Source of the DNA: Thermococcus sp. JdFR-02
Lineage (GTDB): Archaea > Methanobacteriota_B > Thermococci > Thermococcales > Thermococcaceae
Direction: 5' to 3'
DNA length: 64,000 nt
Assembly: GCA_002009975.1 (NCBI GenBank)
Contig: MTLP01000002.1
Span: 34,795 to 98,794, forward strand
A model generated the notes under the pieces. It ran no database searches, was not told where the DNA came from, and worked only from the letters and a program-made list of their open reading frames with translations. The position numbers were made by a program, and so were the translations under genes. Below, piece after piece: positions 1,044 to 62,233 of the stretch. Position 1 is the stretch's first letter. The number at the start of each line of letters is the position of its first letter.

Positions 1044-1086
1044 ACGCTCACCAAGAATAAACTTAGAAATTCAATGCTAATTACCT

Positions 1087-8849: not shown

Positions 8850-9917
8850 ATGCTATTTGATTTGAGACCAAAAGAAAAGAGAGAGGAATTATTTGATAGA
8901 GAGAAAGAGCTTAAAGAGACTCTGGATGCATTTGATAGATATTCCTTAGTTTTGTTACTTGGAATCAGGAGAATTGGCAAAAGTTCACTTCTTCGGGTTG
9001 CAATAAATGAATCTGAGAATATTGGAATAATAATAGATGCAAGAAAGCTATATCTCAAAGGCAGCCTTAATGAGAGCGCTGTTCTGAATGAAATGGGCAA
9101 GATTAAAGGATACTTCAAAAAGCTGAAGCTCAGAGAAGTTGATCTTAAGTTTTTGAAATTTGATGTAAACAGTAACAAACACTTAGTTGATATATTTGAA
9201 GAGCTTAACAGGCTTGGAGAGAAGAGTGGAAGGAGAATTATCTTAGCATTTGATGAAGCCCAATATCTAAGGTTTTATGGAAACAGGGGCGGGCGTGATT
9301 TATTGGTTCTTTTTGCTTATACCTATGATAATTTGGAAAATATAACACTCGTTTTCACAGGTTCTGAGGTTGGTCTTTTGCACAGCTACTTAAACCTTGA
9401 AAATTATGAAATGCCATTGTATGGTAGATTAGCAAAAGAGATTACAGTCGAACCTTTTTCTCGGGAGGTTTCATTTGAATTTTTGAGACAGGGATTTAGA
9501 GAACTTGGGATTAATGCTCCAGACCATCACATTGAGCTTGCAATTGATCACTTAGATGGGATTCCCGGGTGGCTTGTAGAATTCGGAACAATTTATGCTG
9601 AAACTAGGAACTTTGAAATATCGCTTGATCAAACATTTAGGAGAGCCAAGAACACAATACACAATGAGATTAGAGAGTTAGAAAAAAGAAGCAATAAATA
9701 CCGGTTCGTTTTAAAAGCAATAGCCTTGGGATGGGATAGATGGAAGAACATAAAAGAGTATCTACATGCAAGAAAGATTAGAACCTCCGATTCAAGATTA
9801 TCCGAGATTTTAAGAAATCTTGAGAAGATGGGCTGGATTAAAATGGAGCTTAGGGATGGTAAAAAGGTATACAAGATAATAGATCCAGTTGTGGAACAGA
9901 TTTTAAAGGGTGATTAG
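8850..9917 (+). CDS. Archaeal AAA ATPase (ATPase_2 type) with C-terminal winged HTH
   Basis: LFDRE, GIRRIGKSS Walker A, FDEAQ Walker B, TGSE, GIPGWL. Confidence 0.85.
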   Translation: MLFDLRPKEKREELFDREKELKETLDAFDRYSLVLLLGIRRIGKSSLLRVAINESENIGIIIDARKLYLKGSLNESAVLNEMGKIKGYFKKLKLREVDLKFLKFDVNSNKHLVDIFEELNRLGEKSGRRIILAFDEAQYLRFYGNRGGRDLLVLFAYTYDNLENITLVFTGSEVGLLHSYLNLENYEMPLYGRLAKEITVEPFSREVSFEFLRQGFRELGINAPDHHIELAIDHLDGIPGWLVEFGTIYAETRNFEISLDQTFRRAKNTIHNEIRELEKRSNKYRFVLKAIALGWDRWKNIKEYLHARKIRTSDSRLSEILRNLEKMGWIKMELRDGKKVYKIIDPVVEQILKGD

Positions 9918-10350
9918 GGTGAGGCTTATCCTAAAACCCCTCTTTGGAGTGGAACTTCCCCCAGAATTTGTGGAGATTTTAAAGTCTAAGTTAAAGGGAA
10001 GAGAAGTTAAGGAAGGTGAAACAATAGAGATTGATCTTTTGGGGAAGTCTTTGAGCTTTAAAGTTGTATATGCTGAGCCCAAAGAATTTAAAGTTGATGT
10101 AAGGACGAAAATTGAACTAACGGAGAGAGAAGTTGTTCCAATAAGTTTTGAATTTGAAGAGCCTGTTAAAGATGTTATTCCCTTTGAGAAAGGGCTTGTT
10201 ATGGTCTTTGAAAATGAGGTTCTAATCTTAAACCAAGAAGGGCATAAAATTTTTAATATGAAGTTCGAGAAAATAACAAAGATTGTAATAAATGGAAATG
10301 TAGTGACGGTGGTTCATAATGACAAAAAGCTCACAATCATTCGAGTTTGA
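9910..10350 (+). CDS. Hypothetical protein with Cdc48 N-domain-like N-terminus
   Basis: LKGREVKEGETIEI...FKVVYAEP resembles Cdc48 domain 2; overlaps neighbours in an operon. Confidence 0.55.
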   Translation: MIRVRLILKPLFGVELPPEFVEILKSKLKGREVKEGETIEIDLLGKSLSFKVVYAEPKEFKVDVRTKIELTEREVVPISFEFEEPVKDVIPFEKGLVMVFENEVLILNQEGHKIFNMKFEKITKIVINGNVVTVVHNDKKLTIIRV

Positions 10351-11056
10351 GAGCTGGGACGAAAAGAAGGAAAGAGCAGTTAAAATCGTTAAGAAGCTCA
10401 TGAAAATGTATCCAAGAGGGACAATGGAGAAAATTCTGCATGGAGACCCTTATTTCACTTTGATTCGGTGTATAATATCTCAAAGGAATAGGGATGAGGT
10501 AACAGACAGAGTAAGCAAAATTTTATTCAAAAAATATCCAACAATGGAAGCTTTAGCTGCTGCAAAAGCGGAGGAAATTCAAGCACTTTTGAAAGAAAAT
10601 GGCGTCGGTCTTTGGAAGACGAAGGGTAGATGGATTGTAGAGGCTTCAAGGATTTTGCTTGAAAAGTATAGAGGTAAAGTTCCAGACACTCTTGAAGAGC
10701 TTGTGAAATTGCCTGGTATTGGGAGAAAATGTGCAAATATAGTTTTAGCATATGGATTTGGAAAGCAGGCTATCCCAGTTGATACTCACGTTCATAGAAT
10801 AAGCAAGCGCTTAGGCTTAGCACCTCCGAAATCATCCCCAGAGAAGGTTGAAGAGCATCTAAAGGAACTAATCCCGAAAGAACTATGGATTTATGTTAAC
10901 CATGCAATGGTTGATCACGGAAAGACTATTTGTAAGCCAATAGGTCCAAAATGTGGTGAATGTCCCTTAAATCAACTCTGCCCTTATGCTAAGGGCTTAA
11001 TAAAAGAAGAGGACATTAAAGGAAAGTCCTCAACCAAAAAGAAGAAAAATGCGTAA
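10319..11056 (+). CDS. nth: Endonuclease III (HhH-GPD DNA glycosylase)
   Basis: LPGIGRKCA HhH, PVDTHV, C-X6-C-X2-C-X5-C Fe-S motif. Confidence 0.92.
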   Translation: MTKSSQSFEFESWDEKKERAVKIVKKLMKMYPRGTMEKILHGDPYFTLIRCIISQRNRDEVTDRVSKILFKKYPTMEALAAAKAEEIQALLKENGVGLWKTKGRWIVEASRILLEKYRGKVPDTLEELVKLPGIGRKCANIVLAYGFGKQAIPVDTHVHRISKRLGLAPPKSSPEKVEEHLKELIPKELWIYVNHAMVDHGKTICKPIGPKCGECPLNQLCPYAKGLIKEEDIKGKSSTKKKKNA

Positions 11057-45166: not shown

Positions 45167-45481
45167 TTATAAGAGTAGAATGGTGCGGTGGCCGGGATTT
45201 GAACCCGGGTCGCCGGCTCGGAAGGCCGGAGTCCTAGACCAGACTAGACTACCACCGCACGAATCACCAATTCTAACTATCTCCACGCTTGATTTAAGAC
45301 CTAAAGCCACCTCAAGCAACTGCTCCACCAAACGGCTCACATTAGCGAACCTCTGCCTTGCCAATGTCCACACCTGTCTACGTATAGTCAAATTCACATG
45401 AATTCTCTCGTCCTCAAGGCGCTTTTTTGACGATTCCTGACCACTCCTGCCTTCTCTCTCAATACGTATTCCTACGTGCAT
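45167..45481 (-). CDS. N-terminal fragment of split SSV1-type integrase, Int(N), reading through tRNA-Gly
   Basis: GGTGA RBS and TTTATAAA upstream; frame through att (CGGSLVWSRTPAFRAG) matches the Int(C) frame. Confidence 0.85.
   Translation of the reverse strand: MHVGIRIEREGRSGQESSKKRLEDERIHVNLTIRRQVWTLARQRFANVSRLVEQLLEVALGLKSSVEIVRIGDSCGGSLVWSRTPAFRAGDPGSNPGHRTILLL
45181..45258 (-). tRNA. tRNA-Gly(TCC), intact copy with encoded CCA
   Basis: GCGGTGG...CCGGC-CTTCCGA-GCCGG...GGTTCAAATCC...CCACCGC-ACCA. Confidence 0.96.
45212..45259. repeat. Left att direct repeat (48 bp)
   Basis: Identical to 60018-60065. Confidence 0.95.
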
Positions 45482-48788: not shown

Positions 48789-51359
48789 ATGGATGGTGAG
48801 AGTGAGAAATATTTTGGTGAGAGGAGTAAGGTAAGTGAGACGAAACAAAATTTTTTCAGTTTTTCAAACAGTGAAAAAGAAAAAAGAAGCAATAATATCT
48901 TTTTCATTTCAAATGAAAAAGTGAAAACAAACGAAAAATTAAATGAAAAACATGATGAAGCTGATTTTATCAACGAAATTATTGAAGCTGTAAGGCAATC
49001 ACTTAAACTTTTTCGTAATTATGATGCTATACCTTTTGCAGTTCTATTTCTGAATAGAGAAATAAGCGAAGAACAGCTAAGAACTGAAATTAAAAAATGG
49101 ATGGAAAAAGGCATCATTAAAAATTATAGCGTAGATTCTATGAAGCAAGCCTTATCAAGAGTTAAAAAGTCGCCATACGTTTTATCGAGAACAGATGAGC
49201 TTGGAATAACGTATTACCAGATGACAGATGAAGCAAAAACGAAAATCAAAAATAAATTAATAGTTTTAACTGAAGAAAAAGAAATTGAAGATAGTTCTAG
49301 AAAAGCTGAAGAAGCTGATAAGGAGACATTAATCACTTTATTTGTTGATTTCTTTAAGTCTTACATGGATTCTAATAGCAAGAAGGTTTACATAGAGAAG
49401 CTGAAAAACTTATTGACTGTAAGATCATCTAAGAGTCTGGTTATAGATTGGTCACATTTGAGTGCTTGGAATCCTAATTTAGCAGCACGTTTGATTAATG
49501 AGCCTGAAATGGTTATTAATGCTGCAGAAATTGCTATTACGATTGTATTTAAAGAGGAATTATTTAGTGATGAACAACCTAAGACTTTTGTTCGCTTCGT
49601 TAACTTGCCAAAGACTATTTTGATCAAGAATATTAGTAACGAGCATATCAACAAGCTGATTCAAATTGAAGCAGTAGTTACTAGAGTCGGAGAGTTAAAG
49701 CCGTTTGCTTACAAGTCCGTATTTGTATGCAAAGATTGTGGACATGAACATAAAAGAATTCAACAACCGTTTGCACCTGAAATTAAAGTTAAAAGATGTG
49801 AAAATTGCGGATCTAAAAATGTCGCATTGGATGTCACTAAATCCACATTTATACCTTTACAGAGTATTAGATTCCAAGAGTTACCTAACAACATGAAGCC
49901 TGGCGAACCACCAAGGATTTTGGATAGTATTGTATCGCATGATTTAGTAAATGTCCTAATTCCAGGAATGCGTGTTAGAATTGTTGGTATTTTGAGAGTA
50001 TTACCAGATTCTTCAAAGATTGCTACTTTCAAAAAGATGTTGGAAGTAAATAGTATAATTGTGCTAGACCAAGGATTAGAAGATATCGAGATTAATGATG
50101 AGGACATCATGAAAATTAAACAATTAGTTTCAGAGCCAAATCTTGAAGAGTTAGCTGTACAATCATTCGCACCTGCAATTTTTGGATATGATGACGTCAA
50201 ACTTGGTTTGATTTTATCCTTATTTAGTGCACCAAATGTTGAATTGCCTGATGGAATGAGATTAAGAGGTGAAATTCATTCACTCTTGATTGGTGATCCT
50301 TCTACTGCCAAATCTACATTAGTTAGATGGACTGTTAACATCGCTCCAAGAGCTGTTTATACAAGTGGTCGTGGTGCTACAGTCGCCGGTATTACTGCCG
50401 CCGCTGTCTGGGATGAAATTTCAAGAAGTTGGATGTTAGAAGGTGGTGTTTTAGTTTTAGCTGACCAAGGAGTGGCAATCATTGATGAATTGGATAAATT
50501 AAGTGAAGAAGCTAAAAAGAGTTTGCATGAAGCACTTGAACATGGTACAGTAAGTGTATCTAAAGCTGGAATTAATGCTAATTTGAATGCCAGAGCTACA
50601 TTAATTGCTGCAGCTAATCCTAAATATGGTCGTTGGAATCGGTATAAGAGTGTAGTTGAGCAGATTAATATTGATCCTGCATTGTTATCAAGATTTGACT
50701 TAATTTTTGTATTTATCGACGAACCAGAAGAAGAATTTGACAGTCAAGTTGCACACCATATTCTGAGTGTAAGAAATAAGAAAAAGGAGGCTATTTCGAC
50801 ACCAATTCCTTTAGACTTATTTAAAAAGTGGATTGCTTATGCGAAATTAAACATCAATCCAGTAATTCCTGAAAGCTTATGGAAGGATCTTGAGCAATAC
50901 TATGTTGAGTTAAGATCGAGTATTAAGAAATACGCAGAAAAACATGGTATTGTACCTATTCCTATTACTGTTAGACAGTTAGAGGCTATGATTAGATTGG
51001 CACAAGCTAGAGCTAGGATGTTTTTGAGAGAGAAAGTTACTGCAGAAGATATTATGAAAGCCAAAGAGATTATTGAGTACATGCTTAAACATATTGCAAT
51101 GGATTCAAGTGGAATTATTGACGTGAGTATTTTAGAAGTTGGAAAGTCTGCGAGAGAGATTGAAAAAATGGATATTGTTGTTGATTCCATTAAGTTTTGG
51201 CAAGATAAATTTGATTTTGGAGCACCTTTAGATGAAATTGTTAAGGAGTGTGAGAAAAAGAAGATTAATAGTACAGAGGTTAAGAAGATATTGGATAAGC
51301 TTATGGAGGAAGGAAAAGTTTATTCACCAAGAGATAGATATTACAGATTGGCTATGTGA
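48789..51359 (+). CDS. mcm: Element-encoded MCM helicase with long N-terminal extension
   Basis: CKDC..CENC Zn motif, GDPSTAKS, IDELDK, AAANP, SRFD, TVRQLE, C-terminal wHTH. Confidence 0.93.
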   Translation: MDGESEKYFGERSKVSETKQNFFSFSNSEKEKRSNNIFFISNEKVKTNEKLNEKHDEADFINEIIEAVRQSLKLFRNYDAIPFAVLFLNREISEEQLRTEIKKWMEKGIIKNYSVDSMKQALSRVKKSPYVLSRTDELGITYYQMTDEAKTKIKNKLIVLTEEKEIEDSSRKAEEADKETLITLFVDFFKSYMDSNSKKVYIEKLKNLLTVRSSKSLVIDWSHLSAWNPNLAARLINEPEMVINAAEIAITIVFKEELFSDEQPKTFVRFVNLPKTILIKNISNEHINKLIQIEAVVTRVGELKPFAYKSVFVCKDCGHEHKRIQQPFAPEIKVKRCENCGSKNVALDVTKSTFIPLQSIRFQELPNNMKPGEPPRILDSIVSHDLVNVLIPGMRVRIVGILRVLPDSSKIATFKKMLEVNSIIVLDQGLEDIEINDEDIMKIKQLVSEPNLEELAVQSFAPAIFGYDDVKLGLILSLFSAPNVELPDGMRLRGEIHSLLIGDPSTAKSTLVRWTVNIAPRAVYTSGRGATVAGITAAAVWDEISRSWMLEGGVLVLADQGVAIIDELDKLSEEAKKSLHEALEHGTVSVSKAGINANLNARATLIAAANPKYGRWNRYKSVVEQINIDPALLSRFDLIFVFIDEPEEEFDSQVAHHILSVRNKKKEAISTPIPLDLFKKWIAYAKLNINPVIPESLWKDLEQYYVELRSSIKKYAEKHGIVPIPITVRQLEAMIRLAQARARMFLREKVTAEDIMKAKEIIEYMLKHIAMDSSGIIDVSILEVGKSAREIEKMDIVVDSIKFWQDKFDFGAPLDEIVKECEKKKINSTEVKKILDKLMEEGKVYSPRDRYYRLAM

Positions 51360-51368
51360 GGTGAGCAC

Positions 51369-51770
51369 ATGGCTAAAGCTAAATATGTTATTTTCTTTGA
51401 TGGAGAAAAAGAATGGAAAATACCAATAGTTAAGTCAGATAGTGAATTAAGTAAGTATTACGAGGAGTTTAAGAAAGCTGGTAAGCCATTTATCCATATC
51501 AAACATATTGGTAGGACTGTCAAGTATAAGATAGATTTTGATCTAAATTCAGAGTTAACAGATGAGGCAAAAAATAAGCTTGAGGAAATAATTAGATATT
51601 ATACTTCAAAGTCAGCAGAATATTGCAAGAAGTGGCGCAATGATTTTGAATGGTATAGTTTATCCAGTCGACATGGCTATTTCATGGTACATACAAAATT
51701 CAAAGAAAAAGCAGCAATAGAAATTGCTTTAATTCTTTTTGATGAGTCTAATTGGAAGCATACTCTTTGA
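51369..51770 (+). CDS. Hypothetical protein
   Basis: GAGGTGA RBS directly after mcm. Confidence 0.65.
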   Translation: MAKAKYVIFFDGEKEWKIPIVKSDSELSKYYEEFKKAGKPFIHIKHIGRTVKYKIDFDLNSELTDEAKNKLEEIIRYYTSKSAEYCKKWRNDFEWYSLSSRHGYFMVHTKFKEKAAIEIALILFDESNWKHTL

Positions 51771-51978
51771 ATTGGTCTATCCTTTCTTTTTAGATTTTCA
51801 ATGAGTCCTAAAGTTCTTTGAATGGTAATTTTGTGGATATAATCGTATATTCAAACGTGGTACTATTAATTTCTATTTATCTATATATTTATTTTGACAG
51901 TTATATGTTATCATATGGTTTAACCGTAAAATCTATATAGTTATATGGTGGATATTAAGATAGAACCGGTTAAATCAG

Positions 51979-52629
51979 GTGGTTAAATTGGTAGAGAAGA
52001 AGAAATACGTTTGTTTAAAGTGTGGTAATATTTTTGATAGTAGAGCAAAAACTCCGAGATGTTCACTTTGCAAAAGTAGAAAGGTAGTAGAGTATGAGTT
52101 TTGGATTAAAAAGAAACAAGAAATTGAAAATAAGCAAAACGAAGAACAGAAATCAGAGTTTGATGTGGTTAATAATATGGTTAAGCCGGTTAAACCTGGT
52201 GATAATGTGGATTTAACCGGTGAAAAACCAGATAAAGATGTGGTTGAACTGGTGGTTAATGGTCAAAAACCGGTTAATCATTTGGAGGATGATGGCGAAA
52301 AATCACTTGTAAACGGTGAAACCAATGGTGAAAGTGAAAAACCACTAGGACCACATAATGATGAAAAGTCCAATGGCGAAATGGTTAAACATGCAGAAAA
52401 AGTGAAGCTTAAGAATATTAAAAAGAATGCAGGAATAAGTATTCCAATTCTTCCTGCCAGTTTCTTAGTCCTCGTTGGTGTTATAGTGTTGATTTACTGG
52501 AAGCGCAAAGAGATATGGAACATGATAGATTCCTTGTTTGGAAGAGAAAAAGATCAAGATCTTCTGTTAGACTATTCTTATCACTCTAAAAATCCTCTGA
52601 GGCTTAAAATTAGACAAAATTTAAGATAA
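51979..52629 (+). CDS. Zn-finger protein with low-complexity linker and C-terminal TM anchor
   Basis: CLKC...CSLC; ILPASFLVLVGVIVLIYW. Confidence 0.7.
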   Translation: MVKLVEKKKYVCLKCGNIFDSRAKTPRCSLCKSRKVVEYEFWIKKKQEIENKQNEEQKSEFDVVNNMVKPVKPGDNVDLTGEKPDKDVVELVVNGQKPVNHLEDDGEKSLVNGETNGESEKPLGPHNDEKSNGEMVKHAEKVKLKNIKKNAGISIPILPASFLVLVGVIVLIYWKRKEIWNMIDSLFGREKDQDLLLDYSYHSKNPLRLKIRQNLR

Positions 52630-52644
52630 AATAAGAAAGGTGAG

Positions 52645-53022
52645 GTGTTAAAGATGGCTTTAAGTGTGAGTGAGATTATTGCTAAGGTAAATAAGAAGCA
52701 TAGGTATTTGGTAATATTTAAGGATGGTAGAGAAGTGAAGCTGAAAGGAGATGAACTTAAGGAGAAGCTATTGAGTGGTCAAATTAGGCTTAGTGAGCTT
52801 AGAGATATCCAAGACTTGGATTATGATAGTCGTGTAGAAGAGATAAATGGACTAGAAAAGTTTCTAAAGAAAGTAGAGTGGCGCCTTGGTTCTTTAATGA
52901 AAGGAGGTCAAGACCTATCTAGTTGGTTCCAAACTATTCTAAAAGTGATAGGAATGTTAATTGGTCTTTTTATAGTAATTAAAGTTCTAAGTGGAACTTT
53001 AGGAGGTGGAAATAGTGATTAA
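52645..53022 (+). CDS. Hypothetical protein with C-terminal TM
   Basis: ILKVIGMLIGLFIVIKVL. Confidence 0.65.
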   Translation: MLKMALSVSEIIAKVNKKHRYLVIFKDGREVKLKGDELKEKLLSGQIRLSELRDIQDLDYDSRVEEINGLEKFLKKVEWRLGSLMKGGQDLSSWFQTILKVIGMLIGLFIVIKVLSGTLGGGNSD

Positions 53023-53170
53023 TCTTGAGGATAAAGAGACTATATATGGAAGCCTTATTTTTGGTCTTGGCTTGCTTTTTCTGTATACAATTGCTTTGAA
53101 TGTTAAGCAATGTAAGGATACATTAAAGGAGATTCATAAATTGTTGGCTACAACCACTACAAATGACTAA
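53015..53170 (+). CDS. Small single-TM protein (51 aa, not in ORF track)
   Basis: GGAGGTG RBS, GTG start; YGSLIFGLGLLFLYTIAL. Confidence 0.55.
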   Translation: MINLEDKETIYGSLIFGLGLLFLYTIALNVKQCKDTLKEIHKLLATTTTND

Positions 53171-53175
53171 ATCAG

Positions 53176-53373
53176 GTGAGTGTAGTGATAAAGGAGAAAG
53201 AAGTAGATAATAAGAATAAGAACCTAACACCAGAGGAAGAAAAGTTGGAGGAAATAGAGAAAGCTTTAGAATGGTGTATAGAACATCCTTTCATCTTTTC
53301 TCTTGTTCTAATAGTAGCCTTTTATTTTTTTACAGACTTTCCAGATTGTTGTTTTATCCTGTCCAAACTTTGA
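53176..53373 (+). CDS. Small membrane protein
   Basis: PFIFSLVLIVAFYFF. Confidence 0.55.
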   Translation: MSVVIKEKEVDNKNKNLTPEEEKLEEIEKALEWCIEHPFIFSLVLIVAFYFFTDFPDCCFILSKL

Positions 53374-53426
53374 ATGGAATTGTACAATTAGTGGATAGAC
53401 TCGGAAAAGATTAGGTAAAATCAGAG

Positions 53427-54101
53427 GTGATAAAAATGATAAATAAGACAATTAAGGTTGTTGACAAAAGTTTAGATTTGATACAAACTTTGTTTTATGT
53501 TAGTGTTGCTGGAGCAACGCTTTTTCTGCTTTACAAGCTTTATAAAATGCTTAAGAACTTAAATTTTGGTAAATTTGGAGAAGAAATAAAGAAAGCACTT
53601 AAGCCAACACCATTAACAGAAGAACAAAGGAGAGAGATTTCTAAGACTTCACCAAGCTTAGTTGGTGGAGCTTGGACTAAACCATCACCATTATACAAAG
53701 AATATCTTGAGAGAGTGAAAAGCGGTAAAGTTGATACAAGCATGACATTAAAGGAATTCTGGACTGAGGAGAGGAAAAAAGAGTATCTGGATAGAATAAA
53801 AAGATCAGAGTATTACAGGTATCTTGATACACAAAAAAGGCGTTATGAAACTTATGAGGAGTATTGGAAGAAACAAGGTTATACAAGCGTTCCAAGTGGT
53901 AATGTTGGAGTTCCAAGCCATATAAAAGCTATTCAAGAGAGGAGTAAAGCATTAGAGAGGTATTGGAAAGATAAAACAAAACAGGAACAACAGAGAAAAA
54001 GAGTAGCTCCATCTTTGCCAAAGCAATTAAGGATTAAAGTTTCACTTATGTCAAAGCCAAAATACACAATTCCAAAAGCAAAAACAGTGATAGCAATCTA
54101 A
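53427..54101 (+). CDS. Membrane-anchored basic hypothetical protein
   Basis: GAGGTGA RBS; N-terminal TM; Lys/Arg-rich remainder. Confidence 0.65.
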   Translation: MIKMINKTIKVVDKSLDLIQTLFYVSVAGATLFLLYKLYKMLKNLNFGKFGEEIKKALKPTPLTEEQRREISKTSPSLVGGAWTKPSPLYKEYLERVKSGKVDTSMTLKEFWTEERKKEYLDRIKRSEYYRYLDTQKRRYETYEEYWKKQGYTSVPSGNVGVPSHIKAIQERSKALERYWKDKTKQEQQRKRVAPSLPKQLRIKVSLMSKPKYTIPKAKTVIAI

Positions 54102-54117
54102 TTGGAGCATGAGTTCA

Positions 54118-54408
54118 TGCTTTTGAAGTTGCATCAGAAAAGCTGTAATTTCAAATGCTGCATAAGAATATCAATACAGTAGAATCTCTATAATAAGGTC
54201 ATAGGTCATATATGCCTTTTATTACCTTTGATTGATTATCCGAAAGTGGATAAAACCAAACAACATCAATTATTGGTGAATATCCTGGATATAGATCTTC
54301 AAATGGATACTCATCATATGCTAAGAATCCTAAGTCATTACCTAAGTAAATATGAGCTTCTTGTAGTTTCACATGAAAATTATCAACACATCGTTGTGCA
54401 CTACCAAT
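54118..54408 (-). pseudogene. Decayed PD-(D/E)xK nuclease-like gene fragment
   Basis: HVKLQEA..LG.DLGF.AYDEY...PIIDVVW, then 7-bp duplication GGTCATA (54197-54210), an in-frame stop, then YAAFEI. Confidence 0.5.
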
Positions 54409-54473
54409 TTAATTTCAGGCATAAAGGATTTTAGCTTTTTGTAAGACTTTAAACATAAGTGTATTCCACTAAC

Positions 54474-55474
54474 TCATGAAAGATAAAGTTTCAAAATTAG
54501 ATCTCTATTCTTTTGAACAAGTTCAATTTTGGTTAATTTGTTAATATTGCTACACAATTCTGCTTCAATTTTATTTCTAAGCGCTCTCAGCATAGAGTAT
54601 TGGACTATCTCATCATCTTCGCAATAAATTGCATAATTTTTTAGTTCTATTTCAAGATCTGGTTCTTTTTTCTCTGTTTTTTGACTCAACTTAAAAACCT
54701 TGACAAGTTCAAAGGTCAAATCCTTTATACACTCTTCATGATTATTGCTTTTGCTTCTAGCTCTTTTGTAAGCTCCACATTTCTCAAGGATTAACCTAGT
54801 CGAGTCTGCATTAACACTTTTTCTGAGTTTATGGAAAGTTATCTTCTTTTTGTTCCATTTCATTAACCAAGTATCCAAAGTAAAAATCGGTAAGCGTTGA
54901 TCCAGAATGTAGAGTTTCTCTCCAATTTTAACACCTACAGCAACATGACTAAAAAATGTAACAAAGTAAATTTCAGGATAAATATTCAGCAGTAGAGATG
55001 CAGTAAATCTTGCATAGTCTCTGCATATTGCTAGTTTGTACTTCAGGACTTTGTTTGATGACAGACCTGGTCGAATGGTGTCTATAAAATATCCAAATAG
55101 TTTTGCTAATTTTGATAATTTCGATTTTTCATATCTGCACAAAGGTCGATAACTAATTATTAAGTATACAATCACAAAGAAAGGCAATGTGATAAACAAT
55201 AAAGCTGGAATTAAAGTTAAAAATTGTGGTATCCTATAAAACTCACCAATAACGATTTCAACCACAATAATAACGAATAACACAATCCAGATTCCTAAAA
55301 ACCATGATACTATCCATCTTTCTGTCCAGTATCTTATATTTTTATCTTGCCATTCTAAGATATTAACTAATGTTTCTTTCTCAGAATCTCCTTTTAATTG
55401 ATTTACTAATCTTTGTATTTTTATGTCATCTATCTCTCCTAGTGTTGGACAAAATTCTCTATTCCTTTAATCAC
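54474..55474 (-). pseudogene. Membrane-associated transglutaminase-like (Cys-His-Asp) protein with a frameshift near its 5' end
   Basis: AICRDYA, SHVAVGV, YILD triad; frame open to 55466 without a start; GTG 55474 overlaps upstream TGA and comes into frame if the T4 run at 55451-55454 were T5. Confidence 0.7.
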
Positions 55475-57558
55475 TTTTGGAAATAACCGCATGAGTCATC
55501 ACATGCTTTATTAGTTAAATCTAAATATGCACTCAATACTAACGTTTTAACATTCTTATCCTTCAACAGATTTTTTGGAGGAGATATCTCTACTTTATAT
55601 CCACATTTTTCAAACTCTGGTTTTAAGTCTTCAAGAATTCTTTTTAGTTTCCTAAGTTGCTTATGGAAATTTTTATGCTTACCTGATTTCACTTCACTTA
55701 TGGAAAGCATAATTTGCTCTGGAGAAAATCCGATTATTAGGATATCCAATTCAACCTCTGGTTGGTTATTTTTCATTAACTTAGTGTCTAACGCTACTAA
55801 ATACCAATCCAATTTCTTCATTTTACCATAATACTCTAAAAGTTCAATCGCATACATAGGTTCTGCATACTTTCCTTTTTCTTTAACCGTATTAGAAAGG
55901 TTATCTTTTAGAATACTAGATGCAAAACTTAAATAATCGGATTTGATAACGAATGGAAAACTAAAAGTATTTAAGTATTCCTCTTCAATTGGAACTTCCT
56001 TAATATTAACCTCATATTCCTCAAAGAGTACTCGCAATATGTAATAAATAATATTAAAAGATCCATTTAGTGCAGTTTTAAGACTGTCTACTAGCCACAT
56101 ACTCAGAAATCGTTTCGTAACTATGGAATTCAGTTTAACATTTTTCTCAACTATCCTACTCCTTTTATTAATGCTATCAAGAGGATAATACAAAATGGTA
56201 CTAGTGTTTAATACAGCAAGTATCCTCGCAATTTTGTTAGGATATTGAGCTAAGTTTGGATATATAAACATCTGGTATTCTTTGCTTGCCATGTTATATA
56301 ATATTATACCAGGCATCTTTGTAAGAAAATTCAATTCACATGTAATCGGCTTGAATGACGTGATTTTCAAATCTCTAAAGTTAATTTCAATCACATCTTT
56401 TAAATCATTGTGTATTTTTCCTTGATGTTTCTCGGATAACATATTCCATATTTCCTTGTTAATTACATGCTTTATTTTTTCGTCGATTTTATTGGAGAGA
56501 ATATCCTCCAAAAGATCTTCCACTGAATCATATTTGCCAAAAACTTGACTTTCTAAGATACTAACAGCTCTAAGATGATAATAAGCTCCTTCTACACTTT
56601 GATACAGTGTTCTAGTGTAGAATTTTTCAATATTATCAACAACTTCTTTGTAATGTTTATTTTCGAGAAATAGTGGCAGTAAATTTAGAATTGCATGATA
56701 ATTAAGCTGTATAGGCGATTGAGCAACATATCCATCGAGAACAGTAAACGATAACTCTCTTAGTACTAGAAAATAATCTACAACATTCTCAACTTTTTCA
56801 GAATGCTCTAAATCTTTCTGTCTCTCAGGCTCTTCATAATTTAAATATCTCTTTCTAAACATCATAAGTTTTGTGAGCTCTCTTAACTTAGGAATTAACT
56901 CATCGTCATCTTGTAATTTTTCTGCGTTTTTAAGGATTTTAAGAAAGGTAAAGACTTTATGAACCTGCATAATTCTCTCTTGAATTATTATTGTCGCTAA
57001 CAACTTATATAGTTCATTTTTAACCTTTGTAGATTCCTTCTTAAAGAGTTTCGATTTTTCTATTTGCTCTCTAATTAATTTCAAAAATTTACTTTGACGA
57101 CTATTTTTTGATTTTATCCATCTCAGAAATGCATGTTCTGCAGCAAAAGTCATTTGAAAATGTCCTATTGCATATAATAAGGTCCAAGATTTTAATAATT
57201 CACTTAATGAAGAAAACCTAATACCATTAAGAGTTACAGATGTTGTCAGTCCATATTTTAGGAGTTTATTTACTTTGTCTTTCTCCTCTGCTTCATTAGT
57301 TTCCTTTTTCTTCTCTTTTTTGAATTTCTCCTGAGTTTCGAGTCTATTAATCAGAAGAAGCATTGTCAAGATGTGATCATAACGAGTATACTTAAAGAGT
57401 TTTTCTGAAAAGTAGTGTAACGCGCCTAGTTGCATAATATCCTTAAGTCGCAATATCTCATCTTTGAATAATTTGTATATTTGTCTGGACTCATCATACA
57501 AACTTATTTGTTGTTCTCCTATTATTGGTACTTCAATATGGAACTTATTATCCAACAT
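55471..57558 (-). CDS. Degenerate dNTPase-type HD domain fused to a C-terminal PD-(D/E)xK nuclease-like domain
   Basis: RLKDIMQLG, TRYDH, LLYAIGH (for LLHDIGH); C-terminal EVELDILI...ISEVKSG...KQL. Confidence 0.7.
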   Translation of the reverse strand: MLDNKFHIEVPIIGEQQISLYDESRQIYKLFKDEILRLKDIMQLGALHYFSEKLFKYTRYDHILTMLLLINRLETQEKFKKEKKKETNEAEEKDKVNKLLKYGLTTSVTLNGIRFSSLSELLKSWTLLYAIGHFQMTFAAEHAFLRWIKSKNSRQSKFLKLIREQIEKSKLFKKESTKVKNELYKLLATIIIQERIMQVHKVFTFLKILKNAEKLQDDDELIPKLRELTKLMMFRKRYLNYEEPERQKDLEHSEKVENVVDYFLVLRELSFTVLDGYVAQSPIQLNYHAILNLLPLFLENKHYKEVVDNIEKFYTRTLYQSVEGAYYHLRAVSILESQVFGKYDSVEDLLEDILSNKIDEKIKHVINKEIWNMLSEKHQGKIHNDLKDVIEINFRDLKITSFKPITCELNFLTKMPGIILYNMASKEYQMFIYPNLAQYPNKIARILAVLNTSTILYYPLDSINKRSRIVEKNVKLNSIVTKRFLSMWLVDSLKTALNGSFNIIYYILRVLFEEYEVNIKEVPIEEEYLNTFSFPFVIKSDYLSFASSILKDNLSNTVKEKGKYAEPMYAIELLEYYGKMKKLDWYLVALDTKLMKNNQPEVELDILIIGFSPEQIMLSISEVKSGKHKNFHKQLRKLKRILEDLKPEFEKCGYKVEISPPKNLLKDKNVKTLVLSAYLDLTNKACDDSCGYFQK

Positions 57559-57725
57559 GGCAATTTGTGTTTTGTACTTTAAAACTCTTAATTGTTTTGG
57601 TAATCACCATATAATGTTGTTAAAGTATTTTAAAAGTTAGTACTTTAAAAGTAAGCCTCTTTAAAAGTCAGCTTAGAAGACTTATTTTTCAAAAAGGAAG
57701 TGGATCTTATGACCTTGTAGGAGAT

Positions 57726-58172
57726 TTGATGAATGCGAAATTGAGATTTTATGAATTTGAACAAAAATCAGGTAGCTATGTTAGATTGGATAGTGATGTA
57801 GAGATAATAGAACCAAACAATTCTCTTAAGATCACATTATATGCAACATCAAGTATAGATGGTGCAAATAATGTGTGGTGTAATATTGCTCCATATGATG
57901 CATTGGATAATTTACTGACAGGAAAGTTTCTGGTTATGTTTGTAAGAACTCAAGGATTGACAAATTATCAGTTTGGTTTTTCAGTATCTCCACAGACGAA
58001 TAATGATAATGCAGTTTCATCTTTTGTGAATAACAGTGTTGATGCGGATAGAAAACTTGTGTTTTTACCATTTGAGACATTAGCTCCAACGCTAAGACTT
58101 AGAAAATATGCGAATGGTGGATATGGTTACGCATGGCTTGATGCAATATATCTTTTCAATAAGTTGCCTTGA
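57726..58172 (+). CDS. Beta-rich hypothetical protein, possibly the C-terminal remnant of a larger structural gene
   Basis: Asn/Ser/aromatic-rich, ends GYAWLDAIYL; stands alone after the cargo cassette. Confidence 0.5.
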   Translation: MMNAKLRFYEFEQKSGSYVRLDSDVEIIEPNNSLKITLYATSSIDGANNVWCNIAPYDALDNLLTGKFLVMFVRTQGLTNYQFGFSVSPQTNNDNAVSSFVNNSVDADRKLVFLPFETLAPTLRLRKYANGGYGYAWLDAIYLFNKLP

Positions 58173-58236
58173 TGCTTTTTTTCTCTTTCATTAAATTTTT
58201 AAATAGTGTTAAGGTAGAGATTAGAGTGGTGAGTAT

Positions 58237-58518
58237 ATGGCTGTTAAGAGTGCTGATCAGAGAGTGTTTGAGTTTATTGTTGGTGGTCTTGCTAAGGCTA
58301 TAAATGAAAAACCTGAGGATATTATTTGGTTCTTTCGAGTGAGAGAGTTAATGAGCGAGATGGAAAAGCCAATGAGTGATGAAAAGGCTTGGAAGATTAT
58401 TATGAAGGATAAGAAGTCCGTTAAAATGAGTGCTGAGGAGCTTCTTGAAGTTGCAAGGAGAGAGTTGAGGAAGTTTAGGAGGATTGAACGAAAGCTTAAG
58501 AAGCTTGGAGTGATTTGA
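58237..58518 (+). CDS. Putative antitoxin of PIN toxin
   Basis: Small charged protein directly upstream of the PIN gene; own TATA and GTGGTGA RBS. Confidence 0.65.
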   Translation: MAVKSADQRVFEFIVGGLAKAINEKPEDIIWFFRVRELMSEMEKPMSDEKAWKIIMKDKKSVKMSAEELLEVARRELRKFRRIERKLKKLGVI

Positions 58519-59013
58519 ATGCCTAAACTTAAGGTTGTTTTGGATACTTCTATTCTAATCAGTGCTTTAAAATCGAGAGATGTTACTCGAAGTCCTTCTT
58601 GGAAGATTTTAAAGCTCCTCAGTGAGGATAAGTTAGTTAATTATGGTTCTAAGGAGACTATTAAGGAAATGAAAGAGACGCTTGCAATTATTGGTTTGCT
58701 TATTGGAAAGCCTGATAAGGCTAAGGCTATTTATCACTTGGTTTTGAATCATACTAAGCGAGTTTCTCCAAGAATCAAATTTGAGGAATATAGAGAACTT
58801 GTTAAGCTGGTTGGTCATGCTAATGATGTTAAGTTTTTGAATGTTGTTTATGCCTCAAAGTCTCGCTATTTGATAAGTATGAACATTAAGCATTTGGTAA
58901 AACTGCGGAATCCAAAGACGCTTAAGTTTAATCTCAAAAGGCATTGGTTTTACATATTCAAGGATTCTGAATTTGTGAAATACATAAAGGAAAAATACAA
59001 ATGGAAAATCTGA
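58519..59013 (+). CDS. PIN-domain (VapC-like) toxin
   Basis: VVLDTSILISAL, ETIKE, NDVKFL, LISMN. Confidence 0.82.
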   Translation: MPKLKVVLDTSILISALKSRDVTRSPSWKILKLLSEDKLVNYGSKETIKEMKETLAIIGLLIGKPDKAKAIYHLVLNHTKRVSPRIKFEEYRELVKLVGHANDVKFLNVVYASKSRYLISMNIKHLVKLRNPKTLKFNLKRHWFYIFKDSEFVKYIKEKYKWKI

Positions 59014-59030
59014 AAAAGAGTGAAAAACGG

Positions 59031-60017
59031 TTAATCGAGTTTTGGAAACTTATCTGCAACTTTTTTGGAATATTCTTCTTTTGCATGCATTAGCAATTTT
59101 AGATAGTATTCTCGCAATACGGTTGCTGGAGTTTTTCCAGTTAGGAAACTAATGATACTCTCTTTTACATCATTCTTGAATAGGAAATTGCTAAACCATG
59201 TTCTTATTGTAACTGCTTGAAGTCCAGCTCTTTGTAATCTTTTAGAATATGCTTTGTAGGTTGTGAATTTTATTTTATCAATTTTTCTTAACAGTTCTTT
59301 TCCAAACCATGAAGGCATTATCGCTACAAATGCTCTTTTATGTCCTTTTGATACGAATTCAATGTCCATGTGTGCAATGTTATTTTCGAATTTCAATTTT
59401 TTCTTATCTTTCTTCAATGCTTTTAAGGCTTCTAATGCGTGTTCTAATCTTTGACCAGTGTAGAACATGAACTTTATTATTAGTGCTGTATCTTCTCCAT
59501 ATTTTTCCATAGCTTTCTTATAACCTTCTTTAATTTTGTCTAATTCGGCTTCTTCGAATTTTTTAGTTCTAACTTTTGTTTCTTTTCTTACAATGCCTTT
59601 TCTCCATGTTTGTTCTTCGTCTTTACTCATGTATTCGAAATAGCTTAGAAAAGTTAGGAATTTGCCTAAGCCGTTTGTTATGTTTTTCTTCATGTTTTCT
59701 TTGATTAATGCGTTTCTTAGTTCTCTCCAATCTTTTATTTTATACTTTTTGAAGAATTTTGTTAAGGCGTTCATGTAGTCTCTTATTGTGTCTTTTGAAA
59801 CTGGTTTTATTTTTGGTGGTGAGCCTTCTTTTAAGAATTGTCTAAATTCTTCTTTATATGTGTTCCAATAGTCGTTTAAGGTTTTTATTTCTGCTTTTTC
59901 AAGCATTAAAGCCTTTTCTTCTCTTTCTCTTATTTGTGGCTCATAAAAAATGTTAGCGCCTTTAGAAGTGTCCATTTCTAAGGTTTGACGTTCTGTTGGT
60001 TTTAATTCTTCAAAAGA
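59031..60017 (-). CDS. C-terminal catalytic fragment of split SSV1-type tyrosine integrase, Int(C)
   Basis: YTGQRLEH (R), KGHKRAF (K), TIRTWF (R), FLTGK, VLREYY (Y); frame open from att to ATG 59975. Confidence 0.88.
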   Translation of the reverse strand, partial: SFEELKPTERQTLEMDTSKGANIFYEPQIREREEKALMLEKAEIKTLNDYWNTYKEEFRQFLKEGSPPKIKPVSKDTIRDYMNALTKFFKKYKIKDWRELRNALIKENMKKNITNGLGKFLTFLSYFEYMSKDEEQTWRKGIVRKETKVRTKKFEEAELDKIKEGYKKAMEKYGEDTALIIKFMFYTGQRLEHALEALKALKKDKKKLKFENNIAHMDIEFVSKGHKRAFVAIMPSWFGKELLRKIDKIKFTTYKAYSKRLQRAGLQAVTIRTWFSNFLFKNDVKESIISFLTGKTPATVLREYYLKLLMHAKEEYSKKVADKFPKLD

Positions 60018-60065
60018 GCCGGCTCGGAAGGCCGGAGTCCTAGACCAGACTAGACTACCACCGCA
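60018..60065. repeat. Right att direct repeat = truncated 5' part of tRNA-Gly
   Basis: Identical to 45212-45259; T-arm and 3' acceptor strand absent. Confidence 0.95.
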
Positions 60066-60073
60066 AAATGACG

Positions 60074-60150
60074 TGGTGGGGCGAGGGGGATTTGAACCCC
60101 CGACACCCGGATCTTCAGTCCGGCGCTCTCCCAGGCTGAGCTACCGCCCC
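60074..60150 (-). tRNA. tRNA-Phe(GAA) with encoded CCA
   Basis: GGGGCGG...CCGGA-CTGAAGA-TCCGG...GGTTCAAATCC...CGCCCC-ACCA. Confidence 0.96.
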
Positions 60151-60180
60151 ACACCCAGAATATAGAAGGTCAGGATCATC

Positions 60181-60195
60181 TTATAAATCTTGCGG
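60181..60195 (-). promoter_or_regulatory. Host tRNA promoter (BRE-TATA)
   Basis: Minus strand CCGCAAGA-TTTATAA about 30 bp upstream of tRNA-Phe. Confidence 0.7.
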
Positions 60196-60298
60196 TACTT
60201 GGATTAGCATGAAAACAATTGCTTGTTAACTTTATTTCAACATAAGTGTTATATAATAAGAAAATCATTTTTGATTATGACAACTTGGAGGTTTGCAA

Positions 60299-62233
60299 AT
60301 GAAATTTGCTCCTCTCCTCTTAATTTTTGTAATTTTAGTTGCAGGATGCATCCAAGAAACCCCTTCTTCAACCTTTTCCTCATCCCCCTCTAAAACTCCT
60401 GAAGTAGCTTCTACACAAACTCCCTTAAAAACGAGTGAAACTCCAACACAAACGAAAACACATGAAACACCAACCCCAACCACTACTACAAAAGTTTTTT
60501 ACACCCCTAAACTTTTCATACAGCCCCAAAACATAAGTGTAGAAATTAAACTTGGTGAGTCTTTCATGGGTAAAATATTAATAACAAACAAGGGAAATGG
60601 CACAGCACACGTAAATGTGACATCAACCGAACATATCCACCAAATAACTCCAAGAAACCTTATCCTTAAACCACAGACCTCACAAAATATTTCGTTTGAC
60701 ATTTTAATCTCCAACATTGGTACATATAATGCAACATTGGTCTTTACTTATGAAGAGGGCATAATTGAAGTCCCAGTTACAATAATAGTAAAACCCCCAC
60801 TAGCCAATTTAACCAACCAATCTCAAATTGCTCCCCAAAATCAAACCATCGAGATGAATCTAACTTTCACTATACCCACATATCCCATGGCAAAGATTAT
60901 CACGATTCCTGAGAATCTCTGGTCCGAAATGGGTATTCCTGTCGAAGCTGAGCGTCGCGCGTATATTACCAATGCAAGTGTAGACGAGCTAACCAAATGG
61001 TATGAGCAACAAATGAGTGAATGGAAGCTTGAGAAGGATATAGGTCATCATGATCCTATGCAAGGGGTAGATTTTGTATGGAGATTATATAAGAGAAATG
61101 ATTATGGTGCTGTTTTATTCTTCCAGTCAGGACCACAAATACCAAAAGGCTCAGTATTTGGAATTGCAACTGGCTCATGGAATATATTTGAAAATCTTAC
61201 ACCAGCATTCGAAGAACATGTAGAGTACACAGAGGAAAAACCACCCTTTGCCAATCTACCAGAATTAGGAGAAGGAGCAGTAACGTTTGAGGTATCACCA
61301 ATAGACTTTGATGCCATAGAGAGAGTTGAACCCTTAGGGAGATTAAATGCTCCTATGGGACATGTGTTTCCTACTGAACATGGAGGTTTTATTCTAAAAG
61401 ATCCATCTTCCTTCTATGAGATTAGAGCACCTGCTGATGGTATAATAATAGAAATCGAATTTAGCCCGAAATCCGAAGAGTATAGAATTACTATCGCACA
61501 TTCAAGGACCTTCAGCAGTATTTTTGACCACATAACAAAACTGAGCGACTCCATTGCTCAGTTATTGGCTCAGCAGGGATATGAGTTCAAACCCAATACC
61601 TATCGTATTAAGATACCAATCAAAGCAGGTGATGTTATTGGGTTAGTTGGTGGTCATCCAGATGTTGTAGTTGGGTTTGATTGGGGCGTTTATGACAAGG
61701 AGGTTACAAACAACTTCATACATCCAGAAAAATATGATAACAAGTATTTACATGCAACACACTTTATTAATTACTGCAGTGAGGATTTAAAGCGAAAATT
61801 CCTTGCCAAACTACCAAGAACCGCTGAACCGGTCGTAGGAAAGATTGATTATGATCAACCAGGCAAATTGGTTGGAAATTGGATTCTTGAAGAGACAACT
61901 AAATCCGAAGCAATAGAGGAGTGGAGAAAACACCTCTCGTTTGTCTACGACTATCTCGATCCTACCCAAATAAGAATAGGAATAGGAGGCTTTTTAACTC
62001 CAAAACCGGGAACCTATGCTGTCTATGGCAACACACCAGATCCAGCGGATGTTGGCATTGAAAGTGGGAAAGTTGTGTACTGGCTCTACGGTGATCCTGA
62101 ACTGAACCCAGATCTACCAAAAATCACTCTTATAGTCGAGCTAATAAGCGAGGAAAAAATAAAAGTCGAAGTCTTTGAAGGCTGGATAAATAACCCAGAT
62201 TTCACTGAAAATGCACTATATTACACAAGATAA
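60299..62233 (+). CDS. Surface lipoprotein: S/T/P linker, Ig-like domain, C-terminal M23-like fold
   Basis: LVAGC lipobox; Thr/Pro-rich linker; RAPADG and IKAGDVIG motifs. Confidence 0.65.
   Translation: MKFAPLLLIFVILVAGCIQETPSSTFSSSPSKTPEVASTQTPLKTSETPTQTKTHETPTPTTTTKVFYTPKLFIQPQNISVEIKLGESFMGKILITNKGNGTAHVNVTSTEHIHQITPRNLILKPQTSQNISFDILISNIGTYNATLVFTYEEGIIEVPVTIIVKPPLANLTNQSQIAPQNQTIEMNLTFTIPTYPMAKIITIPENLWSEMGIPVEAERRAYITNASVDELTKWYEQQMSEWKLEKDIGHHDPMQGVDFVWRLYKRNDYGAVLFFQSGPQIPKGSVFGIATGSWNIFENLTPAFEEHVEYTEEKPPFANLPELGEGAVTFEVSPIDFDAIERVEPLGRLNAPMGHVFPTEHGGFILKDPSSFYEIRAPADGIIIEIEFSPKSEEYRITIAHSRTFSSIFDHITKLSDSIAQLLAQQGYEFKPNTYRIKIPIKAGDVIGLVGGHPDVVVGFDWGVYDKEVTNNFIHPEKYDNKYLHATHFINYCSEDLKRKFLAKLPRTAEPVVGKIDYDQPGKLVGNWILEETTKSEAIEEWRKHLSFVYDYLDPTQIRIGIGGFLTPKPGTYAVYGNTPDPADVGIESGKVVYWLYGDPELNPDLPKITLIVELISEEKIKVEVFEGWINNPDFTENALYYTR

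Follow-up and report, generated by a model that had tools for sequence, protein, structure and literature searches.

A candidate defense gene in a Thermococcus MCM element joins a metal-site-degenerate SAMHD1-like module to a predicted PD-(D/E)xK nuclease

The role in immunity known for SAMHD1-type deoxynucleoside triphosphate (dNTP) triphosphohydrolases (dNTPases) is that of effectors depriving viruses of dNTPs. A sensor and a nuclease are combined in one protein in Card1, Can1 and Can2, which consist of a CARF sensor and a PD-(D/E)xK nuclease and are activated by cyclic oligoadenylates, and the same sensor-nuclease logic presumably holds for CBASS Cap4. The dNTPase fold is itself responsive to nucleotide cues, as seen with CloA and other real effectors; for CloA the cues are dTTP, which activates it, and p3diT, which inhibits it, according to the available text of its description (PMC12265719). 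A 2026 survey of dGTPase fusions gives SAM, NLR, TIR, CARD, death and SIR2 domains as partners, and its available text, supplements aside, mentions neither a nuclease fusion nor an inactive form (PMC13519002). The END nucleases, as far as their description is available, are stand-alone, methylase-less defense proteins in which an inactive Endonuclease III domain is joined to a type IIS restriction-like nuclease (bioRxiv 10.1101/2025.03.31.646159). Here we describe a gene of Thermococcus sp. JdFR-02 that lies at 55471-57558 on the minus strand of a 64,000-nucleotide window (the whole stretch of DNA analyzed; contig MTLP01000002.1, positions 34,795 to 98,794). The gene is carried by an integrated element with an MCM helicase, and its product, termed P0001, combines a SAMHD1-like module that has lost its metal site with a C-terminal predicted nuclease domain.

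P0001 follows the logic of Card1, Can1 and Can2 in placing a putative ligand sensor and a restriction-type nuclease in one protein. In contrast to Card1 and Can2, the putative sensor of P0001 is a SAMHD1-like body and not a CARF or SAVED domain, and no CARF family was detected in the Pfam scan. The structural similarity of its C-terminal domain to Card1 and the Can proteins (Z of 5.4 or less) is too low for family membership. As in the END nucleases, within the available text on them, a catalysis-dead enzyme domain is proposed to do the sensing for a stand-alone nuclease; however, the sensor fold is SAMHD1-like in P0001 and EndoIII in END, and END reads hypermodified DNA whereas the conserved pocket of P0001 resembles a site for free dNTPs. 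By analogy, Card1/Can2 and the END nucleases are the closest working parallels to P0001. No description of an inactive SAMHD1-like domain fused to a nuclease was found in the literature as far as it was available, the supplements of the dGTPase-fusion survey aside. These comparisons suggest that P0001 is a variant of the effectors in which a sensor is fused to a nuclease, its own sensor being without precedent, and that the SAMHD1 fold has been recruited in immunity as a sensor as well as a dNTP-starving effector. The reading that we favor, with belief and doubt in about equal measure, is that this cargo of the MCM element is a self-contained defense gene in which a pseudo-dNTPase sensor and a PD-(D/E)xK nuclease form a nucleotide-switched effector.

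The SAMHD1-like module of P0001, comprising an HD core and an HD-associated lobe with a degenerate metal site, spans residues 1 to about 510 (56029-57558, minus strand). An AF2 model of P0001, built with an alignment of 38 full-length family members (A2, described below), had a predicted local distance difference test score (pLDDT) of 88.8 and a predicted template-modeling score (pTM) of 0.90. Comparison of this model with known structures by VIA-align matched human SAMHD1 (6u6x_C) with a Z of 21.1 over 332 aligned residues (root-mean-square deviation 4.1; model residues 3-462), and the Z values for Aquifex 2hek, EF1143 2o6i and BT4208 2q14 were 19.2, 17.6 and 17.5, respectively. Many of these alignments extended to model residue ~505. 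The best Foldseek matches were likewise SAMHD1, EF1143 and BT4208, with a probability of 1.00 and a TM score by target of up to 0.54. P0001 therefore shares the whole catalytic-core fold (Z 17.5-21.1) of SAMHD1, EF1143 and the HD plus HD_assoc_2 dNTPases, a group that includes antiviral dGTPase-type enzymes and CloA of Clover. The motifs RLxxIxQLG, xRxxH/Y, LLxxIGH and xxxxY/FxxLD also occur in the same order as in the SAMHD1-type enzymes. An earlier interpretation of this DNA from its letters alone (the sequence-only reading) had pointed to such landmarks, and all of the motifs that it quoted were found in P0001, with codon positions checked: RLKDIMQLG at residues 37-45, TRYDH at 58-62, LLYAIGH at 127-133, RELSFTVLD at 267-275 and FYTRTLY at 313-319, followed toward the C terminus by ELD at 603-605, EVK at 622-624 and QL at 634-635.

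Homology to the SAMHD1-type enzymes was also detectable at the profile level. Searched against PDB sequences, the A2 profile matched EF1143 2o6i (E of 1.5e-4), a fungal SAMHD1 (9mr6, 4e-4) and 2hek (4.6e-3). Among 99 genomes of the order Thermococcales, 96 contained weak matches to this profile (E of 1e-7 to 1e-3), mostly at profile positions ~24-121 and in open reading frames (ORFs) mostly of 360-540 aa, which are the ordinary HD proteins of the hosts. One such paralog in the window's own genome (L017:455-1714) carries HD_assoc_2 (PF19276, 2.6e-43) and HD (PF01966, 1e-13), and nine host HD plus HD_assoc_2 proteins of the order (set A4) match SAMHD1 chains at ~1e-42. Alignment of the A2 family with these nine proteins by hhalign gave a probability of 95.7% and an E of 9.9e-9, while Pfam HD (PF01966) or HD_assoc_2 (PF19276) was matched at E<=0.1 by 0/38 A2 members. 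The proposal that the N-terminal half of the protein is SAMHD1-like was thus upheld as to homology but not as to extent, since the module covers residues ~3-505. A homodimer prediction with two copies of residues 1-500 scored 0.08 against a mark of 0.42, a result that counts neither way.

The family to which P0001 belongs is absent from the libraries searched. P0001 had no match in Pfam, PADLOC or NCBIfam at E<=10 or in PHROGs at E<=0.01; the search against PADLOC covered the 5027 models of PADLOC-DB 2.0, dGTPase-type models included, and returned 0 families. A homolog on a Peribacillus plasmid matched 0 PADLOC families at E<=0.001, and a phmmer search of P0001 against PDB sequences returned noise (E of 0.7 and 1.6). 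The architecture had not been recognized earlier as a named system, and the lack of any PADLOC match agrees with that view. With no match in these four libraries, the family is currently annotated just as hypothetical protein and constitutes a blind spot of annotation. A word-indexed search found 10 relatives of P0001, the best being a 694-aa hypothetical protein from a Heimdallarchaeaceae metagenome-assembled genome (MAG) with 52% identity. An exhaustive search of 1.84 billion representatives found 61 relatives at E<=1e-3, of which 30 were at <=1e-10 and 17 at <=1e-30. Alignment A2 comprises 33 of these 61 matches together with P0001, P0003, P0004, P0005 and P0010, and omits 26 fragments shorter than ~570 aa and two repeat-type matches (P0036 and P0050). 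Counts at individual sites were made on 69 sequences, namely the 38 of A2 and 31 fragments or cluster members added with mafft --addfragments, with P0011, P0036 and P0050 left out. The nearest clusters in the ESM Atlas are unnamed, 585-618 aa long and mostly from Bacillota, with 62-182 members each. They correspond to the distant, ~600-aa half of A2 (20 rows); the other 18 rows are of archaeal type. Many residues are invariant among family sequences of only 16-30% identity.

In SAMHD1 numbering, the HDxGH motif comprises residues 206, 207 and 210, and the DxxDYxxRD motif comprises residues 311, 314, 315, 318 and 319. The metal-binding HD motif is formed by His167, His206, Asp207 and Asp311, and activity is abolished by loss of H206/D207 or of D311 alone, as stated in the available text of a SAMHD1 review (PMC7045340). 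In P0001, Y129-A130 (57169-57174, minus strand) occupy the position of the H-D dyad, as determined by alignment to EF1143 and to host HD proteins, in which LLYAIGH of P0001 lies over LLHDIGH or LLHDVGH. The HD dyad was found at positions 129-130 in 0/62 family sequences, and Asp at position 130 was likewise found in 0/62; the 62 include a 74-aa fragment (P0025) that reads 'HI' there as an end-of-fragment alignment. TRYDH aligns with HxRFEH, and H62, the equivalent of the first metal ligand, is present in P0001. This position is His in 18/62 sequences and Tyr in 42/62, with Tyr or Phe in all 20 distant A2 rows. A permissive hhalign alignment (mact 0.05) to the host enzyme placed RELSFTVLDGY over DQIDYLMRDAHY with a local confidence of up to 9, which puts R267 (56758-56760, minus strand) at the last metal-binding Asp, in the D-x-x-D-Y motif, and D275 at the Asp of the R-D motif. 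Position 267 is Arg or Lys in 54/55 family sequences. Judged by these alignments, P0001 retains one of the four metal ligands and most relatives retain none. The earlier claim that the metal ligands are replaced was accordingly correct for the HD dyad and for the last Asp, but not for H62. Loss of the HD dyad is family-wide, given its presence in 0/62 sequences and the match to Pfam HD in 0/38 at E<=0.1, and recent decay of an active HD domain was rejected on the same count. Because the metal tetrad is incomplete, P0001 falls outside the active dNTPase family.

In contrast to the H...HD...D tetrad, residues equivalent to the nucleotide pocket of the SAMHD1-type dNTPases are kept in the P0001 family. 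By motif spacing, we take L44, G45, R59, H133, T137 and E141 to correspond to SAMHD1 L150, G151, R164, H210, S214 and D218, and F271, D275 and Y319 to correspond to Y315, D319 and Y374. Position 44 is Leu in 61/62 sequences, position 45 is Gly in 62/62 and position 59 is Arg or Lys in 62/62. H133 of the IGH motif (57160-57162, minus strand), the equivalent of the His after the HD dyad, is conserved in 61/61, T137 in 60/61 and E141 in 59/61. Position 271 is Phe or Tyr in 52/56, D275 (56734-56736, minus strand), the equivalent of the Asp in the R-D motif, is present in 55/56, and position 319 is Tyr or Phe in 53/53. In SAMHD1, the bound dNTP has its base and deoxyribose clamped by Leu150, Tyr315 and Tyr374, its 3'-OH in hydrogen bonds with Gln149 and Asp319, and its triphosphate bound by Arg164, Lys312 and Arg366; the available text gives pocket or catalytic roles for 7/9 of the equivalent positions and none for G151 and S214 (PMC7045340). 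The same text reports that the H206R/D207N protein, in which metal binding and catalysis are abolished, still holds dNTPs in the catalytic site in crystals, and that the crystal structure of the H210A protein has a catalytic site without nucleotide (PMC7045340). The absence of the HD dyad from all 62 sequences together with the near-invariance of the pocket positions indicates that the metal ligands have been removed and the ligand-contact positions frozen. Such a metal-less pattern with a kept pocket would be expected of a non-hydrolyzing binding module, in which the conserved Arg/Lys at the former metal Asp could take over a phosphate contact. These sixty-odd sequences could help to distinguish the contribution of catalysis from those of nucleotide binding and allostery in proteins of the SAMHD1 type.

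P0001 differs further from the SAMHD1-type dNTPases in its added C-terminal domain, a predicted restriction-endonuclease-like (PD-(D/E)xK) domain at residues ~536-680 (55519-55953, minus strand). In the AF2 model, this region is ordered as a helix (565-580), three strands (585-596, 599-611 and 615-623), a helix (630-651) and a strand (654-658), and a separate model of residues 512-695 (pLDDT 83.9) had the same order of elements. The alpha-beta-beta-beta-alpha-beta arrangement is the core of restriction-type nucleases. Onto this framework fall E566 at the start of helix alpha1 (55861-55863, minus strand; 48/48), D605 in strand beta2 as the Asp of the D...ExK motif (55744-55746, minus strand; 46/46) and E622-V-K624 at the end of strand beta3 as ExK (55687-55695, minus strand), with Glu in 46/47 (one Gln) and Lys in 47/47. 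The top match by VIA-wide was the Card1 nuclease domain, a weak match with a Z of 5.4 over 111 aligned residues (root-mean-square deviation 4.4), and the other values were also weak (VC1899, 4.9; Can1, 4.8; Can2, 4.0-4.7). Among the 50 VIA-wide matches listed, 16 are to proteins that we take to be nucleases of this kind (restriction-type, Card1/Can or Shedu), namely Card1, VC1899, Can1, three Can2 entries, AF1548, NucS, BpuSI, PaqCI, both BspD6I subunits, NgoMIV, BstEII, EcoRI and SduA, all with a Z below 8, a level that may reflect just a common arrangement of elements. Matches to Pfam below threshold were obtained with one of seven C-terminal pieces each for Endonuc_Holl (0.0089), HSDR_N_2 (0.055) and VRR_NUC (0.11). 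A profile search for the same C-terminal domain behind another N terminus in longer proteins returned only 3 family members, which is weak evidence. On the motif and the predicted topology, the C-terminal domain is likely to be a nuclease of the PD-(D/E)xK type. The restriction-endonuclease pattern named in the sequence-only reading was thus sustained by the near-invariant E...D...ExK residues on alpha1, beta2 and beta3; the evidence from fold comparison is moderate, and the matches themselves are weak. Homologs combine the family-wide loss of HD with this conserved D...ExK motif, as that reading would have it.

The family is rare and moves horizontally. Full-length members were present in 3/99 genomes of the order, and matches at E<=1e-15 were present in 3/133 genomes of the phylum, each from a different genus. 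No match to P0001 was found by tblastn in 72,556 plasmid records; the bacterial-type relative P0044 matched 1 of the same 72,556 records, from Peribacillus (44% of the query aligned at 25% identity), and had no match in 50,697 phage records. The 46 pattern matches among IMG/VR viral contigs included none that was confirmed, and in a BFVD fold search giant-virus HD phosphohydrolases matched the N-terminal part only, with the full architecture not found.

Seven genomic contexts of the gene, the window included, were compared; an eighth locus (L019), a 3.3-kb contig with the homolog cut at its end, was left out. In genome G027 (L015, G027:C1:611000-630999), a 662-aa homolog (8961-10949) forms a lone insert of 31-32% guanine-plus-cytosine (GC) content among flanking 1-kb bins mostly of 52-58%, between an S9 peptidase gene, with TmcA beyond, and small ORFs, with a MobA-like gene beyond. 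The homolog of genome G088 occupies the same chromosomal site, with the S9 peptidase and TmcA upstream, and lies 0.7 kb from a PDC-S01 candidate-defense ATPase (PADLOC 6.4e-110). In a Methanobacteriota MAG (L002), an integrase and a Dsr1 gene (PADLOC 2.7e-205) are found 4-9 kb upstream of the homolog. On the Peribacillus plasmid (L021), the 622-aa homolog is 0.8 kb from a PDC-M01A/B pair (PADLOC 6.4e-185 and 8.2e-95), and a tyrosine recombinase lies 2 kb from the homolog. Two metagenome contigs have the gene orders integrase, homolog, DUF553 (L018; DUF553 at 3308-4438, plus strand) and nucleotidyltransferase, integrase, homolog, glutamine synthetase (L020). An integrase was present within 6 kb of the gene in 5/7 contexts and a PADLOC match in 3/7, the latter count being a lower bound because only 10 chosen neighbors were scanned. 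The mobile and defense-associated setting proposed for the homologs is therefore observed. The integrases of L018 and the window are 61% identical and their DUF553 proteins 42% identical, and L020 probably shares the same element backbone. With this backbone common to the window and L018, the contexts cannot be treated as independent, and the presence of DUF553 in both does not require a partnership. DUF553 was rejected as an obligatory partner, as it is found in 2/7 contexts, both of one element backbone.

Three steps would connect these features in the favored, nucleotide-switched defense reading. The metal-less pocket would bind a (d)NTP-like ligand without hydrolysis, and the Arg/Lys at the former metal position may contact the phosphates. 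Replication of a virus or plasmid would then alter the occupancy of the ligand, and the SAMHD1-like body would change its conformation or oligomeric state, as nucleotides cause real SAMHD1 to do. This switch would license the C-terminal nuclease for DNA cutting, such that the invader is restricted or the cell is killed, an outcome that might amount to abortive infection. If true, the state of the nucleotide pool would be linked directly to DNA cleavage, a link undescribed for single-gene defense nucleases. We put forward more tentatively, as something rather less probable than the general reading, that P0001 is the first receptor with a SAMHD1/dNTPase fold, whose Arg-bearing, metal-free pocket reads the dNTP pool or a viral non-canonical dNTP and passes an oligomeric switch to the nuclease. 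With comparable reserve, such a receptor might be a one-gene immune sensor-effector common to archaeal mobile elements and Bacillota. Under this receptor proposal, H48, H142 and H328 in the archaeal-type rows and other residues in the ~600-aa rows may tune the protein to different ligands. P0001 also adds a candidate defense gene for the mobile elements of the Thermococcales order, in which, to our knowledge, few defense systems have been tested beyond CRISPR and restriction-modification.

A number of observations weigh against the favored reading. The equivalence of pocket residues with SAMHD1 was drawn from motif spacing and not from residue-level superposition. The residues of the guanine-specific allosteric site of SAMHD1 are not recognizably kept in the hhalign alignment, and so SAMHD1-style allostery of P0001 is not simply to be assumed. 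With regard to the nuclease, kinase N-lobes account for 12 of the 50 VIA-wide matches listed, with Z values tied with those of the nucleases. Foldseek of the C-terminal domain against the PDB returned no nuclease, its matches being anti-sigma factors and designed proteins at a TM score of ~0.2, and a profile of the seven C-terminal pieces against PDB sequences returned nothing. An hhalign comparison to two Endonuc_Holl proteins gave a probability of 2.7%, with D and EVK in register. With regard to the neighborhoods, there are only seven contexts, and a common backbone links the window with L018 and probably with L020, so that these are not independent; the PADLOC scan covered the 10 chosen neighbors; the PDC systems are candidates and not validated systems; and the two window neighbors of the gene among those scanned, a 148-aa ORF and DUF553, had no PADLOC match.

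The strongest of the competing explanations, though in our view an unlikely one, is that the metal-less body binds single-stranded or modified DNA or RNA, so that P0001 would be a methylase-less, type IV-like restriction enzyme and not a reader of the nucleotide pool. The best structural matches include oligonucleotide-bound SAMHD1 (6u6x, 6u6z, 8d9j and 8tdv), and the title of one study calls SAMHD1 a single-stranded nucleic acid binding protein (PMC4513882). The END nucleases, in the available text on them, provide a precedent for a dead-enzyme sensor of DNA modification on a restriction-like nuclease (bioRxiv 10.1101/2025.03.31.646159), and the homolog that stands alone in G027 implies that no partner is needed. 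However, the invariant N-terminal residues are equivalents of the dNTP pocket and not of a surface groove. The first ranks of the oligonucleotide-bound entries probably reflect a conformational state, because Z across the SAMHD1 entries differs by less than 4.

Somewhat less likely again is that the nuclease serves the element and not antiviral defense of the host, through a role in replication, recombination, exclusion of rivals or, as an addiction toxin, post-segregational killing. The gene does occupy an integrase-proximal cargo position at three integrase-bearing loci (the window, L018 and L020), and a PIN-domain gene lies near it in the window. The copies in G027 and G088, in contrast, are chromosomal, with no integrase among the 5 flanking ORFs scanned per locus, which argues that the gene persists without the element. 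Furthermore, the homologs of L002, L021 and G088 (L016) neighbor defense genes recognized by PADLOC, and the family is absent from the phage records and found in just the single plasmid record noted above.

That P0001 is still an enzyme, a bifunctional dNTPase-nuclease with phosphohydrolase or other catalysis at a non-canonical site, is improbable. H62, H133 and E141 are present in P0001, and within the 18 archaeal-type A2 rows H48 and H328 are conserved in 18/18 and H142 in 17/18, so that these residues could line a re-modeled site. Against this, none of H48, H142 and H328 is conserved in the 20 distant A2 rows, in which position 62 is also never His. SAMHD1 itself is inactivated by loss of H206/D207 or D311 alone, as cited above, and P0001 retains only one of the four ligands, with Arg in place of another. 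A decaying or functionless dNTPase remnant, to which the lost metal ligands and the lack of library matches might point, is already contradicted by the pattern of conservation, with many invariant residues at 16-30% identity, 61 relatives at E<=1e-3, nearest Atlas clusters mostly from Bacillota, a confidently predicted fold and a 695-aa frame intact in AT-rich DNA, and can be dismissed as very improbable.

The reading frame of the gene starts with ATG and runs uninterrupted for 695 aa plus a stop, as the sequence-only reading had it, and among the 24 ORFs of >=60 aa listed for 50000-62000 on both strands there is no overlap with it (0/24). The AT-richness noted there was also confirmed: GC content is 30.1% in the gene, 32.4% in the element and 37.2% in the window outside the element. 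A BRE/TATA-like sequence, TAAGAGTTTTAAAG (57577-57590, minus strand), has its TATA center ~23 nt before the ATG; by the general pattern of archaeal promoters, it would serve this gene itself and give rise to a leaderless mRNA. Upstream, the divergent intergenic region contains three CTTTTAAAR motifs at 57628-57667 with a spacing of 15-16 nt, which may serve as additional TATA boxes or bind a regulator. These copies are 3/12 of the matches in the whole window, where the motif is not enriched (12 observed, 9.4 expected).

The element that carries the gene is 14.8 kb long and is flanked by a perfect 48-nt direct repeat. The left copy (attL, 45212-45259) lies inside tRNA-Gly(TCC) (45181-45258) and the right copy (attR) is at 60018-60065. 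The plus strand carries the replication-side genes, including the MCM helicase (48789-51359) and several ORFs without a known family. The minus strand carries the P0001 gene, a DUF553 transglutaminase-like membrane protein directly downstream of it (54474-55283) and the C-terminal part of an archaeal phage-type integrase (PF16795; 59031-59975, 314 aa, with the frame open on past 60017 across attR). Together with the att repeats, MCM and integrase, this arrangement bears out the description of the gene as opposite-strand cargo of an integrated element. The MCM has 30.8% identity to that of KF527230.1 (Thermococcus nautili, 18,345 bp) and ~33% to MCMs of haloarchaeal plasmids. At 30.8% identity, the element is no close relative of plasmid KF527230.1, and its identification as pTN3 was rejected. 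No CRISPR or cyclase genes were found near the P0001 gene in the window.

The 314-aa integrase frame continues upstream across attR (CGGSLVWSRTPAFRAG...), and a 74-codon ORF at 45260-45481 (minus strand) enters attL in the integrase frame with the same 16 att-encoded residues. From this shared frame and these 16 residues, the excised circle would encode a single longer integrase of the SSV type. By this reading of the frames, the integrase is split by integration into parts at 45260-45481 and 59031-60017, both on the minus strand, as has been described for deep-sea archaea in the available text of PMC7253208. On the plus strand at 58237-59013, a 93-aa ORF stops one base ahead of a 164-aa PIN_3 gene (Pfam 4e-12); the two are probably a VapBC-like toxin-antitoxin pair and form one cargo block of the element with the P0001 gene. 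Beyond the element, a tRNA-Phe (60074-60150, minus strand) starts 9 nt past attR, and its first 26 nt have 81% identity to the matching part of tRNA-Gly. At the L002 locus, the Dsr1 gene (588-4500, minus strand) consists of two overlapping ORFs, a 387-aa SIR2_2 part and one of 928 aa (model positions 292-1225), an arrangement that could stem from a frameshift, from splitting of the gene or from misassembly.

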